NCBI GenBank assembly: GCA_007375535.1
Contig: VMEM01000002.1
Span: 84,265-148,264, forward strand
DNA from: Parcubacteria group bacterium LiPW_41
GTDB taxonomy: Bacteria > Patescibacteriota > Minisyncoccia > UBA6257 > GWB1-50-10
DNA length: 64,000 nucleotides
Direction: 5' to 3'
The notes beneath the pieces are model-generated. The model did no database searches and was not told the DNA's origin. It worked only from the letters and a program-made list of their open reading frames with translations. Each line of letters begins with the position of its first letter. Position 1 is the first letter of the stretch. Below are positions 4,808-19,920 of the stretch, piece after piece. The translations under genes and the position numbers were made by a program.

Positions 4808-6577
4808 ATGGTTTCTTCTTCAGAAATTCGAAATAAATATCTTGAGTTTTTTAAATCAAAAGGACACACTAGAATTCCTTCTGCTTCTTTGATCCCTGAA
4901 AATGACCCCACGGTACTTTTTACTACTGCAGGAATGCACCCACTTGTCCCGTACCTTTTAGGCGAGAAACATCCGAGTGGGAAGATGCTCACAAACGCAC
5001 AAAAATGTATTAGGACGGGCGATATTGATGAGGTTGGAAATACTACCCATTTGACCTTTTTTGAGATGTTAGGGAACTGGTCACTCGGCGAATATTTCAA
5101 GGAGCAAGCAATCGAATATAGTTTTGAATTTCTTACTTCAAAGGAGTGGTTGGGTTTTGATAAAAACCTTTTAGCATTTTCAGTGTTTCAAGGAGATAAC
5201 GATGCGCCATTTGATTCTGAAGCATTTGAAAAGTGGAAATCGCTAGGAATTTCAGAAAAAAGAATTGCAAAACTACCAAAGAAAAATAATTGGTGGGGAC
5301 CAGCGGGAGAAACGGGGCCATGTGGACCAGATACTGAGATGTTTTACTGGACTGGGAATCCAAGTGAAGTCCCAGAGTCATTTAATGACGACAACCCACT
5401 GTGGGTTGAGATTTGGAATGATGTGTTTATGCAGTACAACAAAACAAAAGATGGTGAGTTTGTTCCGCTTGTACAAAAAAATATTGATACGGGGATGGGG
5501 CTTGAACGAACAGTAGCAATTTTAAATAAGTGTGATGTATATCATATCGATACGTTTAAGCCAGTAGTAAGTGCTATTGAAGAATTATCGGGAAAAAAAT
5601 ATGGAGAAAACGAACGGGATACACGCGCGATACGAATCGTTGCGGATCATCTTCGTGCGGCGACGTTTATTTTGGGTGATGAAAGAGGAATTGTTCCATC
5701 AAATGTGGGACAGGGATATGTGCTTCGCAGGCTTATTCGAAGAGCAGTCCGTTACGCAAAACAGATTGGAATTCCCATGGAGCGTCTCCATTTAATTGTT
5801 GGGGATGTAATTGAGGGTTTTGAGAATTCTCCATATTCAGAATTAGAAAAAAATAAAGAAAAAATAGTTTCTGAGTTTAAGAGGGAAGTGGAAAAGTTTT
5901 CGGTTGCACTCGATAAGGGATTAAAAGAATTCTCAAAATTAGAAAAAGTTGATGGGGCGGTTGCGTTTAATTTATATCAATCATATGGGTTTCCTTTGGA
6001 ACTTACCGTAGAGCTTTCACACGAGCGAGGATTTTCTGTTGATGAGAAAGAGTTTAATGAGGAATTTAAGAAACATCAGGACCTTTCGAGAACTGCATCC
6101 GCTGGAGTGTTTAAGGGTGGACTCGCTGATAATTCCGAAGCGGTGGTGAAATATCACACTGCAACACATCTTATGCTTCAAGCTATGAGAGAGATTTTAG
6201 GTTCACACGTCGAACAACGGGGAAGTAACCTTACCGCAGAACGAATGCGATTTGATTTTTCTCATCCAACCAAAGTGACACCAGAAGAAATTAAAAAAAT
6301 TGAAGATAGGGTAAATGAAATAATCAAAAAAGATTTGCCAGTACATTTTGAGATGCTTTCAGTAGACGAGGCAAAGAAGCGTGGAGCAACAGGAATTTTT
6401 GAGGAGAAGTATTCTGCGCTTGGAAATAATCTGAAAGTATATTTTGTGGGGGATTATTCTGCAGAAATTTGTGGTGGTCCACACGTGGAACACACGGGAA
6501 TCTTAGGAACATTTAAGATCCAAAAAGAAGAGGCGGTTTCTCAAGGAGTTCGCCGTATTAAGGCAATACTCTCATAG
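4808..6577 (+). CDS. alaS: Alanyl-tRNA synthetase with catalytic, tRNA-recognition and editing domains but no C-terminal C-Ala domain. The ORF track starts at the TTG at 4754
   Basis: N-terminus SSSEIRNKYLEFFKSKGHTRIPSASLIPENDPTVLFTTAGM; FFEMLGNWSLGEYFK; WGPAGETGPCGPDTEMFY; editing HTATHLMLQAMRE...GGPHVEHTG. Confidence 0.9.
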   Translation: MVSSSEIRNKYLEFFKSKGHTRIPSASLIPENDPTVLFTTAGMHPLVPYLLGEKHPSGKMLTNAQKCIRTGDIDEVGNTTHLTFFEMLGNWSLGEYFKEQAIEYSFEFLTSKEWLGFDKNLLAFSVFQGDNDAPFDSEAFEKWKSLGISEKRIAKLPKKNNWWGPAGETGPCGPDTEMFYWTGNPSEVPESFNDDNPLWVEIWNDVFMQYNKTKDGEFVPLVQKNIDTGMGLERTVAILNKCDVYHIDTFKPVVSAIEELSGKKYGENERDTRAIRIVADHLRAATFILGDERGIVPSNVGQGYVLRRLIRRAVRYAKQIGIPMERLHLIVGDVIEGFENSPYSELEKNKEKIVSEFKREVEKFSVALDKGLKEFSKLEKVDGAVAFNLYQSYGFPLELTVELSHERGFSVDEKEFNEEFKKHQDLSRTASAGVFKGGLADNSEAVVKYHTATHLMLQAMREILGSHVEQRGSNLTAERMRFDFSHPTKVTPEEIKKIEDRVNEIIKKDLPVHFEMLSVDEAKKRGATGIFEEKYSALGNNLKVYFVGDYSAEICGGPHVEHTGILGTFKIQKEEAVSQGVRRIKAILS

Positions 6578-14275: not shown

Positions 14276-15125
14276 TAAGAAATATTTTTTACTTTTGTTT
14301 ATTATTTTGTTTGTTGCAAATTGTGTTTTTGGGATACTTATTTTTTCCTCATTTCAAAGTTCATTAAGTGAAATTTATTTTTTAAATGTTGGACAAGGAG
14401 ATGCGGAACTTATTACGCTTGATTCTGGTGCGGTGATGCTAGTTGATGCTGGACCGCCAAACGGAATGGTTCTTGATTCGCTTTCTCGTGTGTTTCCAGT
14501 GGGAAATCGTTCAATTGATCTGTTGTTTGTTTCACACCCAGAATCTGATCATATGGGCGGAATTCAGTCACTATTAGATACATATCGAATTGGTGCTGTT
14601 GTGTATTCAGGAAGAGAGGGAGTAAGTGATTTATGGAAAAGAACAAAGAAAATGATTGAAGAGAAAAACATTCAAATTATTTCTGTTGGTAAGGGTGATA
14701 GGATAAAAACAGGAGATTCTATTATAAATGTTCTTTCTCCAGATTTTTCTTTGCTAAACAGAAAAGAAACAAATGAGTCATCGCTTGTATTGGAACTTAT
14801 TGAGCGGGACACTCGTTCCTTGTTTGTTGGTGATAGTGGAAAGGTAGCAGAGGCAAATTTTATTAGGGCGACAAATGAAACGATCGATATTTTAAAAGTT
14901 GGGCATCACGGTTCTAAATATTCTTCACTTGATTTGTTTCTTGGTACTATAAAACCAAATATTGCAGTTATTGAGGTTGGAAAAAATTCATATGGACATC
15001 CAACACAAGAAGTACTTTCTCGGCTTTCAAATATTGGTGCAAGCATTTTTAGAACCGATCAAGATGGAACGGTTACTATTGAACTACTCGGTGAGGGGAG
15101 AATAAATGTTTTTAAAGAAAAATAA
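14178..15125 (+). CDS. comEC: ComEC C-terminal metallo-beta-lactamase (nuclease) domain, written as a separate +1-frame ORF that overlaps the previous one
   Basis: YFLNVGQGDAELITLDSG...VDAGPP...VSHPESDHMGG...LKVGHHGS is the MBL fold typical of the ComEC C-terminus. Confidence 0.8.
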   Translation: MFLLFTMDYLLHLFGYTYKKEMYEIVYTLWRDNKKYFLLLFIILFVANCVFGILIFSSFQSSLSEIYFLNVGQGDAELITLDSGAVMLVDAGPPNGMVLDSLSRVFPVGNRSIDLLFVSHPESDHMGGIQSLLDTYRIGAVVYSGREGVSDLWKRTKKMIEEKNIQIISVGKGDRIKTGDSIINVLSPDFSLLNRKETNESSLVLELIERDTRSLFVGDSGKVAEANFIRATNETIDILKVGHHGSKYSSLDLFLGTIKPNIAVIEVGKNSYGHPTQEVLSRLSNIGASIFRTDQDGTVTIELLGEGRINVFKEK

Positions 15126-15126
15126 C

Positions 15127-15175
15127 ACAATTGTCCGAGGTCCGACCTCGGACAATTGTGAGGGTTGGTTGTATT
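15127..15175 (+). terminator. Perfect 17-bp inverted repeat followed by a T-rich tract. Likely the terminator of comEC, and possibly also a regulator-binding palindrome
   Basis: cacaattgtccgaggtc c gacctcggacaattgtg, then gggttggttgtattttgattttt. Confidence 0.5.
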
Positions 15176-15213
15176 TTGATTTTTATGGTGTAAGTTGGTA
15201 TTCTAAACGTGAT

Positions 15214-16617
15214 ATGGAACGAACACTTATTAAGGATGTCGGAGCACATGTCGGAGAGGAAATTACTATCAAGGGATGGGTTGATGTTCGTCGCGATCAT
15301 GGAAAATTAATATTTATTGATGTTCGTGATTGGACGGGACCTGCACAGGTTGTGTTTTTGCCAAACAATAAAGAGTTACACGAAAAGGCAAGTGCATTGC
15401 GTTCTGAGTGGGTAATTGAACTTACGGGGACGGTTCAGAAACGTCCTGAAGGACTCATTAATAGTAAGATTGCATCGGGTGCATATGAAATGCTTGCAAC
15501 TGGGCTTGTGATATTGAATGAGGCAAAGACGCCACCATTTGAAGTTGGCGCAGACGGCCGAGATGTGAGTGAAGAGGTGCGAATGAAGTATCGATATATC
15601 GATGTTCGTCGACCTCGACTCCAGAAAAATCTCCGCAATCGAACTAAAGTTTTTCAGTTGATTCGAAATTATCTCATTGGGGAGAATTTCGTAGAAGTAG
15701 AAACTCCAATCTTAACTAAATCGACTCCAGAGGGTGCGCGTGATTATTTGGTTCCATCACGCATTCATGAGGGAACGTTTTATGCGCTTCCTCAGTCGCC
15801 ACAGCAATACAAGCAGTTGTGTATGGTTGCGGGGTTTGATAGATATTTTCAGCTTGCTCGATGTTTTCGAGATGAGGATACACGTGGAGATCGTCAGCCT
15901 GAGTTCACACAACTTGATATTGAAATGAGCTTTGTTGATCGAGAAGATGTGATGGTGGTGAATGAGGCCCTTTTAATAAAACTCGTAACAGAATTATATC
16001 CTGAGAAAAAAATACAACAGATTCCTTTTCCAAGAATTTCATATAAAGAAGCACAGGAAAAATATGGAACCGATAGACCCGATATGCGGGAGGATAAAAA
16101 TGATCCAAATCTTCTTGCGTTCTGTTGGGTGATTGATTTTCCTTTCTTTGAAAAAACAGACAATGGAGGATGGACTTTCACACACAATCCATTTTCAGCA
16201 CCAAAGCCGGAATATATGAGTGATCTACTTGAAGGAAAAAATATTGGAGATATTCTTACTACTCAATATGATATTGTTTTGAACGGGTGGGAGATTGGTG
16301 GGGGAAGTGTTCGCAACCATCGGGCGGAAGCATTGAAATCTGTATTTAGAATTATGGGATTTGAGGAAGAGAGAATTCTTAAGAATTTTGGACATATGCT
16401 TGAAGCATTTGAATTTGGTGCTCCGCCACATGGAGGAATTGCGTGGGGAATGGATCGAGTGATGATGATTTTGGAAAATGAACCAAACATTCGTGAAGTC
16501 ATTGCATTTCCAAAGACAGGAGATGGAAGCGATTTAATGATGAATGCACCATCAGAAGTTTCTCCGGAACAGTTAAGAGAATTACGATTAGAAATAAAAA
16601 AGAAACCACAAAAATAG
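15214..16617 (+). CDS. aspS: Aspartyl-tRNA synthetase, compact form without a GAD insertion. The ORF track starts at 15106 and runs through the upstream palindrome
   Basis: Class II motifs: FRDEDTRGDRQPEFTQLDIE, QSPQQYKQL, GAPPHGGIAWGMDRVMMIL; N-terminal OB domain. Confidence 0.9.
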   Translation: MERTLIKDVGAHVGEEITIKGWVDVRRDHGKLIFIDVRDWTGPAQVVFLPNNKELHEKASALRSEWVIELTGTVQKRPEGLINSKIASGAYEMLATGLVILNEAKTPPFEVGADGRDVSEEVRMKYRYIDVRRPRLQKNLRNRTKVFQLIRNYLIGENFVEVETPILTKSTPEGARDYLVPSRIHEGTFYALPQSPQQYKQLCMVAGFDRYFQLARCFRDEDTRGDRQPEFTQLDIEMSFVDREDVMVVNEALLIKLVTELYPEKKIQQIPFPRISYKEAQEKYGTDRPDMREDKNDPNLLAFCWVIDFPFFEKTDNGGWTFTHNPFSAPKPEYMSDLLEGKNIGDILTTQYDIVLNGWEIGGGSVRNHRAEALKSVFRIMGFEEERILKNFGHMLEAFEFGAPPHGGIAWGMDRVMMILENEPNIREVIAFPKTGDGSDLMMNAPSEVSPEQLRELRLEIKKKPQK

Positions 16618-16676: not shown

Positions 16677-16728
16677 TTGACAAAATACTATATATATTGA
16701 CTTTTATTGTATATGTGATATAATATCT
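16677..16728 (+). promoter_or_regulatory. Sigma-70-like promoter upstream of the DGR target gene
   Basis: TTGACA at 16677 and TTGACT at 16700, then a 17-nt spacer to TATAAT at about 16723. Confidence 0.5.
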
Positions 16729-16776: not shown

Positions 16777-17460
16777 GTGATGGAGAGTCAAAATATGAGG
16801 TGTATCATGGCAAAGAAATCAGTTGATATGGCAGTGTTTCAAAATTGGATTAACACTATTTCCAATTTACTTACAGCAATTAAAAAGCTTGGCGGAACTG
16901 CTGATGCGTTTAAAAATTTCAACAAACAGGAAGTAATTGACGCAGTAGCAGAACTTCTTGTTGGTAAAACCGATGATTTGAAATTGAAATTTCTTATGGT
17001 TATAAAAGAATCAATCTCAATTACAACATCAGCATTTAGCAAGTCGCTATTCACAACAAGCACTAACCCCAAATACTACATTTGGGAAAACTTCCAGAAA
17101 TGGATATTGAACAAGGCATCTGATTTTATCCCCGAATTCAAAGGAACAGTGAAGTCCCTGAAGCTTACCAAAAGCATGAAGGATTCTGAAATCCTTGCAG
17201 AAATCGGTGAATCAAACATCTTTTCTATCGACGAAGCATGTGCCATTTTCAAAGCACTTACTGAACGTCAACCTAATGGTGAAGCAGGTGATCTTATAAA
17301 CAACGGATATGCGAATATCATCTATGTTCGCCTAGACGAAAAAACTGTTGTTCCTGCGCGCGTGCGTTGGAATTTTGACAATCGCGAGTGGCGCTTGATT
17401 GCGCGCTCGTTTGATGACTATTCGTGGTTTGCTGTCCATTCTGTTCTTGTTCGGGGCTAA
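16777..17460 (+). CDS. DGR target (variable) protein. Its C-terminal 37 aa are encoded by the VR. No signal peptide is evident
   Basis: SD gtaggaggtg sits 3 nt upstream. The C-terminal VVPARVRWNFDNREWRLIARSFDDYSWFAVHSVLVRG corresponds to the TR-encoded VVPANVNWNSDNRKWNLNANSFDNNSWNADHSVLVR. Confidence 0.7.
   Translation: MMESQNMRCIMAKKSVDMAVFQNWINTISNLLTAIKKLGGTADAFKNFNKQEVIDAVAELLVGKTDDLKLKFLMVIKESISITTSAFSKSLFTTSTNPKYYIWENFQKWILNKASDFIPEFKGTVKSLKLTKSMKDSEILAEIGESNIFSIDEACAIFKALTERQPNGEAGDLINNGYANIIYVRLDEKTVVPARVRWNFDNREWRLIARSFDDYSWFAVHSVLVRG
17340..17453 (+). repeat. DGR variable repeat (VR) at the 3' end of the target gene
   Basis: About 107-114 bp, roughly 85% identical to 17776-17889. 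It differs at 16 positions, and at 15 of them the other copy has A. Confidence 0.75.
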
Positions 17461-17775
17461 TCATCTTGAACACTGAATATTGATATATTGTTTTGATTAT
17501 TGTCTTATTGACCTTATTTCCGAATGGAAATAAGGTCTTTGTTTTATACTTAGTAATGAATTATTGATTTTGTTTCGGTTACAACTTAGACAACAATATT
17601 TCAAATTATTTTATTCTGGAATTTTGCTTGGTACGCCTTGCAAGAGAGTGGGTAAAATAATTTTTATAATATAAATGATTAGCCCGTATATTTTGCTATC
17701 GAATTATATATTTGGAATTCAATACAACCCAAAGAAGAATCAATGGGTGGTGGCAATGAAGGCAAAATATATAAT

Positions 17776-17889
17776 AGTTGGTGTTGTTCCTGCGAACGTG
17801 AATTGGAATTCTGACAATCGCAAGTGGAACTTGAATGCGAACTCGTTTGATAACAATTCGTGGAATGCTGACCATTCTGTTCTTGTTCG
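17776..17889 (+). repeat. DGR template repeat (TR). AAC-codon rich and non-coding; the ORF 17675-18004 that spans it is not a real gene
   Basis: It carries A at the mismatch positions (AAC/AAT where the VR has CGC/CGT, and so on). The 3' ~30 nt are identical to the VR end. Confidence 0.75.
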
Positions 17890-17893
17890 ATGC

Positions 17894-18214
17894 TTATCGT
17901 TTATTTATTCCCCGCATATTTTTTGCGGGGAATCCCGTTTCTATGTTTCGTTTCCATCCATACAACATTTTTCCTATTTCTCCAAGTTGTTCGGTAAGCT
18001 TTGAAAAATGTGAGGTTGAAATTATTTTTGATTCCCAGGAGAGTTGAATAAGCATTTTTAGTGTATCTAGTTTTGCAATTGCCACTTCCAGTATTTCCAT
18101 TTTTCTAATCGGAGATGCATAGAGTGCTTTAAATAATAACTCAATATATCGAATAAATAGCTCATCAATTCTTTCTCCAAGTGTATAGCGCGATGATTTG
18201 GGAATGTGTGGCAT
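17894..18214 (-). CDS. avd: Avd-like accessory variability determinant (four-helix-bundle family). It is encoded on the strand opposite to TR and RT
   Basis: 106 aa, helical. ...SHFSKLTEQLGEIGKMLYGWKRN matches the Avd/four-helix-bundle C-terminal motif (GxMLGGW-like). Confidence 0.6.
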   Translation of the reverse strand: MPHIPKSSRYTLGERIDELFIRYIELLFKALYASPIRKMEILEVAIAKLDTLKMLIQLSWESKIISTSHFSKLTEQLGEIGKMLYGWKRNIETGFPAKNMRGINKR

Positions 18215-18270
18215 GATCGAAACCCAGAAAATATATGCTTCTTTTGATTTTAGTATTATTTTAGGAACAG

Positions 18271-19323
18271 ATGAAACGGGGGGGGGGGATTAATGGGAAG
18301 AGATTGTTTTATATTCATATGAATATATTTAAACAGATTATTTCAACAGAAAACATAGTTTCCGCGTGGCAGGAATTTTTGTGTGGCAAGCGGAATAAGT
18401 ATGACGTGCAGTTATTTTCGCTCAATTTGATGAGTAATATATTTAGATTACAGCGAGAATTAGAAGAGAAGCGATATATTCATGGACTATATCACGCATT
18501 CAGAATATCGGATCCGAAACCGCGTGATATTCACAAAGCATCAGTACGAGATCGTTTACTTCATCATGTACTTTATCGAGTATTGTACCCACTGTTTGAT
18601 ACGACATTTATTGCCGACTCATTTTCTTGTAGAAATAACAAAGGAACACACAAAGCACTTCAAAGATTTCAGCGGTTTGTATGGAGGGTAGGTAAAAACA
18701 ATACAAAGCAATGCTGGGTATTAAAGTGTGATATACGAAAATTTTTTGCGAGCATTGATCACGAGACGCTTGTTTCAATTTTGGAGAAGCGTATAAATGA
18801 TGCAGATGTTATTTGGTTGTGCAAAGAAGTGATAAAAAGTTTTGAGACAGAAGTGGGGAGTAGGCGAGGACTTCCATTAGGAAACCTAACCTCGCAATTA
18901 TTTGCAAATGTGTATATGAATGAATTTGATCAATATATAAAACATACATTGAAGGTAAAGCATTACATTCGTTATGCGGACGATTTTGCGATATTCTCAA
19001 ATAATAAAGATGAATTAGAAAAACTGATTCCTAAAATACGGTCGTTTCTTAGTGAAACGCTTCATCTTTCAATTCACGATGATAAGTTATTTATTGAAAC
19101 TATTTGTTCTGGTGTTGATTTTTTAGGTTGGGTTCATTTTTCAAATCACCGAGTTGTGCGGACAAGAACAAAAAGAAGAATGATGAAACGGATCGAAGGA
19201 CATCCTACACAAGAAACAATTAACTCATATTTAGGGCTTTTGAAACACGGAAATACAGAGAAATTAAAAAAGCAAATTGATTACTTCACATTTTTAAAAG
19301 AAAAAGATATACTGCCTAAGTAA
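18271..19323 (+). CDS. DGR-type reverse transcriptase. The start is probably the internal Met at about 18319; the ORF 5' end spans a G11 tract
   Basis: RT motifs: FRISDPKPRDIHKASVRDRLLHH; CDIRKFFASIDH; GLPLGNLTSQLFANVYMNEFD (the DGR-specific SQ motif); YADDFAIF. Confidence 0.85.
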   Translation: MKRGGGINGKRLFYIHMNIFKQIISTENIVSAWQEFLCGKRNKYDVQLFSLNLMSNIFRLQRELEEKRYIHGLYHAFRISDPKPRDIHKASVRDRLLHHVLYRVLYPLFDTTFIADSFSCRNNKGTHKALQRFQRFVWRVGKNNTKQCWVLKCDIRKFFASIDHETLVSILEKRINDADVIWLCKEVIKSFETEVGSRRGLPLGNLTSQLFANVYMNEFDQYIKHTLKVKHYIRYADDFAIFSNNKDELEKLIPKIRSFLSETLHLSIHDDKLFIETICSGVDFLGWVHFSNHRVVRTRTKRRMMKRIEGHPTQETINSYLGLLKHGNTEKLKKQIDYFTFLKEKDILPK

Positions 19324-19326
19324 ATT

Positions 19327-19920
19327 ATGAAAAACGAACGAACATTTGTCATATTAAAACCAGACGCAGTCCACAGAAATCTTTTGGGAGAGATTATAAG
19401 TCGTTTTGAACGAACGGGTTTGAAAGTAGTTGCGGTAAAATTTATTATTCCAACGAGAGAACAATGTCTTACGCATTACAATAAAGATGATGCTTGGTTT
19501 GTAAAGGTAGGGAATCGTACGATGCAAGAAATGGTAGCAAAGGGAGTTACTCCAAACAAGGAGGCAATAGAATATGGGAAAGAAATTTTGGAGGGGAATG
19601 TAAAATTTTTAACTGCAAGCCCAGTACTTGCAATGGTGTTTCAGGGAAACAGAGCAGTTGATATTATAAAAAAACTTGTAGGAGGAACGGAACCATTAAC
19701 ATCAGATGTAGGAACGATTCGAAGTGACTACACTATTGATTCATATGCACTTGCAGGAGCTGATGGGAGATGTGTGAGAAATTTAGTTCATTGTTCCGAT
19801 GTGGTAGAAGAGGCAGAACGGGAGATTAAGGTGTGGTTCAAAGAAGAGGAGATAGTACAATATACCCATCTTAACGAAAAGATTTTATATGATGTAAACT
19901 TGGATGGAATACTAGAATAA
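19327..19920 (+). CDS. ndk: Nucleoside diphosphate kinase (extended form)
   Basis: ERTFVILKPDAVHRNLLGEIISRFE; NLVHCSDVVEEAEREIKVWF (active-site His). Followed by the terminator aaaaccgcttacgcggtttta at 19918-19940. Confidence 0.8.
   Translation: MKNERTFVILKPDAVHRNLLGEIISRFERTGLKVVAVKFIIPTREQCLTHYNKDDAWFVKVGNRTMQEMVAKGVTPNKEAIEYGKEILEGNVKFLTASPVLAMVFQGNRAVDIIKKLVGGTEPLTSDVGTIRSDYTIDSYALAGADGRCVRNLVHCSDVVEEAEREIKVWFKEEEIVQYTHLNEKILYDVNLDGILE

Follow-up and report, generated by a model that had tools for sequence, protein, structure and literature searches.

Diversity-generating retroelements (DGRs) are enriched in genomes of the candidate phyla radiation (CPR), where the layout known as B3 is standard. 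In this architecture, found in 90% of the CPR DGR set, a template repeat (TR) is followed by the accessory gene avd on the reverse strand and then by the reverse transcriptase (RT) gene, TR-(avd)-RT; most of the variable repeats (VRs) of these elements have no assignable fold class (Wu et al. 2018, Nucleic Acids Res 46:11, PMC5758913). DGR clade 2 groups cellular, aquatic elements that are restricted to Patescibacteria and whose targets lack recognisable transmembrane or other domains, and unannotated VR domains have been proposed as new C-type lectin (C-Lec) variants (Roux et al. 2021, PMC8144416). The mechanistic prototype is the DGR of Bordetella phage BPP-1 (mtd-avd-TR-brt), and the closest known systems also include TvpA of Treponema denticola and C-type-lectin variable proteins of the FGE-sulfatase type. 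Here we analyse a 64-kb stretch of contig VMEM01000002.1 (hereafter the window) from the metagenome-assembled genome (MAG) of Parcubacteria group bacterium LiPW_41, and conclude with high confidence that it carries a chromosomal CPR-type DGR of architecture B3, with the order target-TR-(avd)-RT.

The core order TR-(avd)-RT with a reverse-strand avd is present in the window, and nothing essential separates the locus from the CPR B3 elements and DGR clade 2. It shares with them the gene order, the inverted avd, the host phylum (Patescibacteria/Parcubacteria), the chromosomal location, a small target with a C-terminal VR and no recognisable Pfam or transmembrane domain, and RT relatives at 58–88% identity across many CPR classes. 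Neither the cassette nor its target family was found named in Wu et al. 2018 or Roux et al. 2021. The likeness to the BPP-1 element lies in the adenine-specific flow of information from TR to VR, an RT with the I/LGxxxSQ and YADD motifs, an accessory protein predicted to be an Avd four-helix bundle, a C-terminal VR in the target and an IMH-like boundary (IMH, initiation of mutagenic homing) followed by a downstream hairpin. In contrast to BPP-1, avd in LiPW_41 lies downstream of the TR on the opposite strand. What follows the TR in the RNA is therefore antisense avd and not a dedicated 140-nt spacer, and the TR RNA would end at a terminator-like hairpin no more than about 50 nt further on. As its target the element has a cellular protein of 217 aa in place of the tip of a phage tail fibre, and it sits in the chromosome between housekeeping genes. 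Because blastn returned 0 matches in 50,697 phage records and the neighbours are housekeeping genes, we rejected a phage-borne DGR.

A repeat finder detected a single 117-nt direct repeat in the region (17346–17462 and 17782–17898), the copies of which are offset by 436 nt, align without gaps and are 84% identical. The upstream copy contains the VR (17347–17453, plus strand), which forms the last 36 codons of the target gene, and the downstream copy contains the TR (17783–17889, plus strand, with homology spanning 17782–17898). VR and TR match ungapped at 91 of 107 positions (85.0%), and the TR, which holds 26 adenines in its 107 nt, has A at 15 of the 16 mismatches (hypergeometric P = 1.5 × 10−10). 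Given this P value and the absence of a third copy of the repeat from the 64-kb window, the adenine asymmetry between TR and VR is real and far beyond chance. The exact alignment agrees with a first-pass annotation, made by a model from the sequence alone, which had reported two repeats of about 85% identity with 15 of 16 mismatches at TR adenines. The codon changes that it listed are present as well, among them CGC in the VR against AAC in the TR (three times), CGT against AAT, GAC against AAC, TAT against AAT and TTT against AAT, and so is the AAC richness of the TR, which in the frame of the target contains 10 AAY codons and has its adenines split 11:15:1 among the first, second and third codon positions. 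The sole mismatch that does not involve a TR adenine is at position 17375 (T in the VR, C in the TR). The 15 variable codons would allow about 2 × 10^15 protein sequences (on the order of 10^15), and one of them, templated by AAG, is able to mutate to a stop. The VR lies inside the coding target gene, and the TR is upstream of the RT open reading frame (ORF) at a distance of 380 nt.

In the Parcubacteria LiPW_41 MAG, the protein LiPW41_280 has the very sequence of the target, and an independent Logan assembly of SRR8863432 matches the window identically over 12.9 kb. Diversification was assessed between strains, by comparing independent assemblies and not the reads of one sample. In L009 (ENA ERZ27284374), a close relative that comes from a sister sample, the TR is identical to that of the window at 117 of 117 nt, whereas the VR differs at 18 of 108 positions, 17 of which are TR adenines (P = 2 × 10−12). 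The flanks differ by 2.7–3.9 per 100 nt and the rest of the target by 3.9 per 100 nt, compared with about 1 per 100 nt for avd together with the gap between avd and RT. L093, a third relative at a greater distance and from a JGI metagenome, has 1 TR difference from the window and 24 VR differences, 18 of them at TR adenines. The population test proposed in the first-pass annotation, a search for VR variation at TR adenines, is thus answered between assemblies rather than within one read set. Altogether, 22 of the 26 TR adenines are substituted in the VR of the window, in that of the close relative, or in both. The close relative matches the TR at position 17375, so the non-adenine mismatch of the window is an ordinary point mutation in its VR. 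An identical TR combined with VR differences that fall almost only at TR adenines is direct natural evidence of adenine-specific mutagenic homing. From its sequence, the DGR of LiPW_41 appears intact and evidently recently active, and it is probably active still.

The same cassette recurs widely. When a single representative genome of each GTDB species was scanned on the basis of the RT, tblastn confirmed relatives at at least 583 loci, nearly all of them in Patescibacteria/CPR MAGs; the best 80 of these at least 583 loci encode RTs with 58–88% identity to that of the window. Of these loci, 78 extend far enough upstream to show the position of avd, which in every one is encoded on the minus strand immediately ahead of the RT gene. 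Among 74 non-redundant loci, 61 have a TR just past the avd stop and a same-strand VR 400–850 nt upstream, and these TR/VR pairs show 6–24 adenine mismatches and at most 2 others (70-nt window). Only 21 of the 61 VRs belong to the target family of the window, and the core cassette is therefore combined with several target families. In L004, L006 and L007, homologues of the target come with cassettes of their own that have A-biased TR/VR pairs. The first of these keeps the synteny aspS-DGR-ndk, L006 and L010 carry the cassette beside other neighbours, and L007 is a GC-rich relative. Directly upstream of its intact DGR, L007 also contains a degenerate cassette (5300–5850) that consists of an AAC-rich TR-like stretch, a minus-strand avd, a run of G and the first ~20 RT codons; tandem duplication and decay of cassettes are therefore indicated.

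The RT gene (18304–19323, plus strand; Pfam RVT_1) lies within a maximal ORF of 18271–19323. The first-pass annotation placed its start at 18271, and an ATG is indeed present there, from which the frame reads through a G homopolymer; the conserved core of the protein begins later, at TTG 18304 or ATG 18319. The motifs LPLGNLTSQ and YADD (LGxxxSQ type), on which that annotation had based a DGR-type assignment, are accompanied by a clear ranking of structural relatives. The DGR RT of Bordetella phage BPP-1 (bRT; 8ub7) is the top match among all PDB sequences (E = 1.4 × 10−45, 159 bits, residues 16–321), with LPLGNLTSQLFANVY opposite IPIGSLTSQLFANVY, LPLGNLTSQ opposite IPIGSLTSQ and YADD opposite YMDD, whereas group II intron RTs in the PDB score at most 77 bits and true retron RTs at most 26 bits. 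By these match scores and motifs, the RT is of the DGR clade. We regard it as vanishingly improbable that the RT is instead part of a defence-associated system, a retron or a group II intron and that the repeat is an ordinary duplication of a gene 3′ end. The best NCBIfam model for the protein is a group II intron RT/maturase (TIGR04416), retron and Drt models also give matches, and no DGR-RT model is among the NCBIfam matches. All of these scores are, however, far below the curated cutoffs (154 bits against 300 for TIGR04416; at most 68 bits against at least 235 for the retron models; the Drt matches are weak), and the BPP-1 enzyme, clearly the nearest structural relative, has double the score of the best group II RT among PDB sequences. 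No group II intron (Intron_gpII, group-II-D1D4) or retron RNA from Rfam is found in the region, and neither a maturase/X nor an endonuclease domain is present. For these reasons, group II intron and retron identities were rejected. A mismatch pattern limited to adenines (P about 10−10) that recurs in 61 related loci is, moreover, impossible to obtain from plain duplication.

A more substantial but still improbable alternative is that the DGR has decayed or is currently inactive, in which case the asymmetry would record past activity, the start of avd would have been lost and homing would have ceased. This alternative draws on avd itself, which was annotated as an ORF on the minus strand (17894–18214, from ATG 18214). 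The first-pass annotation had recognized an Avd-like gene between TR and RT without stating its strand, and the assignment holds for Pfam bAvd (PF22296; 50–51.8 bits against a gathering cutoff of 40), whereas NCBIfam DivGenRetAVD (NF033474) reaches 56.5 bits, or 61.8 bits with an upstream extension, against a cutoff of 80. The Avd frame continues upstream of ATG 18214 to about 18268 (minus strand, 18215–18277) and there encodes a first helix that is conserved. Residues ahead of the annotated ATG are covered by the NCBIfam model, which aligns to them from model position 2, and the in-frame upstream peptide is conserved across loci (VPKIILKSKEAYIFWVSI in the window; LP[VI]xQKxxxAYxLW in relatives). 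No ATG, GTG or TTG start for a full-length Avd is present in the window, L004 or L009, in all three of which GTT occupies the position of the conserved N-terminal Leu and, in the frame of avd, TAA immediately precedes the C-run on its 5′ side. As for the conserved Leu codon being a TTG start, TTG is found there in 21 of 63 loci, which is only about 1.8-fold enriched and is not decisive.

Several points weigh against the reading as an active DGR. The score for DivGenRetAVD remains under its curated cutoff even with the extension; a start at the annotated ATG would cut about 20 residues from helix 1, so that only a truncated Avd is predicted from it; and the expression of avd is uncertain because no canonical start gives the full-length protein. 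The VR carries one non-adenine mismatch (17375), which fresh homing would be expected to erase, and activity within this population is deduced from differences between assemblies. Against decay, the close relative L009 shares GTT with the window, yet the two have identical TRs and VRs that differ at 17 adenine positions, and diversification therefore went on after GTT was acquired. The RT, TR and avd ORFs are intact and 96–100% conserved between strains. A full-length Avd also lacks a canonical start in 15 of 70 related cassettes, which suggests an unusual mode of initiation and not decay. We therefore retain the reading of an intact DGR that is probably active.

The non-coding parts of the cassette suggest how such a DGR might operate. 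Upstream of the target gene is a promoter-like sequence (16697–16724, plus strand; TTGACT-16 nt-TATAAT with a TG-extended −10, 11/12 match) that may serve as the promoter of the target. It was noted in the first-pass annotation at about 16700 with a spacer of 17 nt, where the spacer is in fact 16 nt. The region is AT-rich, and the number of promoter-like sites in it does not exceed chance (11 found, 12 expected). Downstream of the target stop, a hairpin (17510–17537, plus strand) with a 12-bp stem and a 4-nt loop is followed by TTTGTTTT and has a DNA fold z of −5.5. In L004 and L006 its stem differs in sequence and pairing is kept. It is the likely terminator of the target gene and could possibly form a cruciform for target recognition. 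Directly 5′ of the TR, a conserved non-coding block (17685–17781, plus strand) contains an imperfect inverted repeat (17703–17729/17749–17775); this block probably supplies the 5′ portion of the TR RNA, its promoter, or both. A second hairpin, ATTCCCCGCA-TATTTTT-TGCGGGGAAT, follows the TR (17907–17935, plus strand) and is antisense to the 3′ end of avd; after it comes a T-rich stretch. A hairpin with a T-run is found at this site in 47 of 74 related loci compared with 1.85 of 74 random windows of the same loci (25-fold), and the stems vary in sequence among relatives yet keep their pairing, with the consensus 5′-CTCC...GGAG-3′ followed by TTTTGTTTT. This hairpin looks like a terminator-like 3′ end of a short TR RNA. 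No description of a terminator-like hairpin after the TR was found in Wu et al. 2018 or Roux et al. 2021.

The 3′ boundary of the VR has an IMH-like form (17436–17465, plus strand), with an IMH*-like counterpart in the TR (17872–17901). The last 18 nt of the VR (17436–17453) are identical to the TR, after which the VR continues with GGGCTAATC and the TR with ATGCTTATC; the differences at 17454, 17455 and 17459 are also fixed in L009 and in a paralogue of the target on another contig of the MAG (L002). By analogy with phage BPP-1, we infer that this boundary functions as an IMH. The proposed cycle would then run as follows. The target would be transcribed from the promoter-like site at 16697–16724 and terminated at the hairpin at 17510–17537, and the TR, by analogy with BPP-1, would be transcribed into a short RNA that ends at the hairpin at 17907–17935 and its U-run; the start of this RNA is placed in the block at 17685–17781. 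A complex of RT and Avd would copy this RNA into cDNA with misincorporation opposite adenines, and the cDNA would replace the VR, in that direction only, with the 3′ boundary set by the IMH-like end; these last steps are again modelled on BPP-1.

Between the divergent starts of avd and RT is a homopolymer of 11 G (18278–18288), the only run of G or C of at least 8 in the 64-kb window. A G-run of at least 7 is present in 71 of 78 related loci (67 of 74 non-redundant loci), with a length of 7–14 and a mode of 9–11, and it occupies the equivalent site in L004, L006, L007, L009, L010 and most of L012–L091, at 2–21 nt from the conserved Avd N terminus and about 10–40 nt from the RT start. No conserved motif was found in its flanks among the related loci. 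The run has 10 G in L009, which is the only difference from the window in the 104-nt gap and may be an assembly error. The divergent coding starts of avd and RT are about 35–60 nt apart, which leaves too little room for two promoters, and the transcription starts of the two genes are therefore predicted to lie each within the opposite gene. A minus-strand ATG at 18318–18316 would be in frame with avd if the run had 12 or 9 C in place of 11. We tentatively raise the possibility, although we consider it doubtful, that the G-run acts in cis, through its proneness to slippage, as a gate on the mutagenesis machinery. In one version, phase variation or transcriptional slippage would put an upstream start in the frame of avd; in another, the homopolymer would tune both leader RNAs. 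As for the C-run being read as poly-proline coding sequence from an upstream start, an in-frame canonical start is present in 24 of 70 loci, which equals the chance expectation of one third and is not decisive. If the slippage proposal were true, hypermutation in these bacteria would be switched on and off stochastically. We found no description of the G-run or of a slippage role for it in DGRs in the searchable literature (Paul et al. 2017 not covered). The internal RT ATG at 18319 is part of a CATATG palindrome (18316–18321), so that a minus-strand ATG faces the avd side; many relatives have a CAATTG palindrome in the region of the RT start, which places TTG on both strands and may be a coincidence.

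The target gene (16807–17460, plus strand) likely starts at ATG 16807, which is preceded by GAGGTG, and would encode 217 aa; its longest ORF, from GTG 16777 to 17460, encodes 227 aa. The target has no match in Pfam, NCBIfam or the PDB when searched as a single sequence, nor in the PDB when searched with a 116-sequence profile. It nevertheless belongs to a family of 2,299 cluster representatives at 50% identity (E ≤ 10−3), mostly of 200–230 aa. When the family is aligned, the core QPxGExGxLLxNGYANIFYV is conserved, and in the C-terminal segment after it conservation is limited to a scaffold, VxWxxxxRxWxxxAxxLDxxxWxxGxRVFSR. AlphaFold models of the target have a predicted local distance difference test (pLDDT) score of 84.6 with 19 sequences and 93.4 with 116 sequences. 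The model consists of three N-terminal helices and an alpha/beta domain of which the VR forms the last three strands, and the variable residues are located on these three C-terminal strands of a compact domain that probably serves as a ligand-binding surface. The first-pass annotation had compared the VR segment to C-type-lectin-fold variable regions. In the predicted structure the VR-bearing domain bears a weak C-type-lectin-like resemblance, and a Foldseek search of the model against the PDB returned nothing; the modelled fold would be at best a minimal C-type-lectin variant.

Among the representatives of the family, the target domain occurs as five tandem copies in a 926-aa protein (P0019), and in a 490-aa protein with a signal-like N terminus (P0109) it lies C-terminal to a BNR/sortilin beta-propeller. 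The domain therefore behaves as a portable module. The paralogue LiPW41_444 (L002, 6001–6648), encoded on another contig of the same MAG, has a VR-like C terminus with an identical IMH-like end, GTTCTTGTTCGGGGCTAATC. It was rejected as a second, remote target of the TR in the window, as 12 of its 31 mismatches to that TR are at non-adenines and no TR or RT is present within 6 kb of it; at present it is not being rewritten from this TR. A gene for a four-helix bundle of the 23S_rRNA_IVP type lies 3 kb downstream of LiPW41_444; the paralogue could be either a relic or the target of another TR.

The cassette is flanked by aspS (15106–16617) and ndk (19327–19920), both identified by Pfam. These neighbours, and the ORFs at 16777–17460, 17894–18214 and 18271–19323, are where the first-pass annotation had placed them. 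Its description of boundaries flanked by terminators applies to the 5′ side only: no terminator is present between RT and ndk, and the ATG of ndk (19327) is 3 nt past the RT stop. A promoter-like site for ndk, TTCACA-17-TATACT, is located inside the 3′ end of the RT gene (19285–19313). The RT–ndk junction is likewise kept in L004.

The LiPW_41 locus is a clean example of targeted protein hypermutation in an episymbiotic, ultra-small CPR bacterium of the groundwater type, and conceptually it adds little that is new. For specialists, it draws attention to many related avd genes with an uncertain start codon, and to a large target family (about 2,300 clusters at 50% identity) that lacks a Pfam model and for which a confident predicted structure is now available. 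The stereotyped non-coding anatomy, in which a terminator-like hairpin follows the TR and a G-run separates avd from RT, could offer leads for biochemical studies of how B3 DGRs produce and regulate their RNA.

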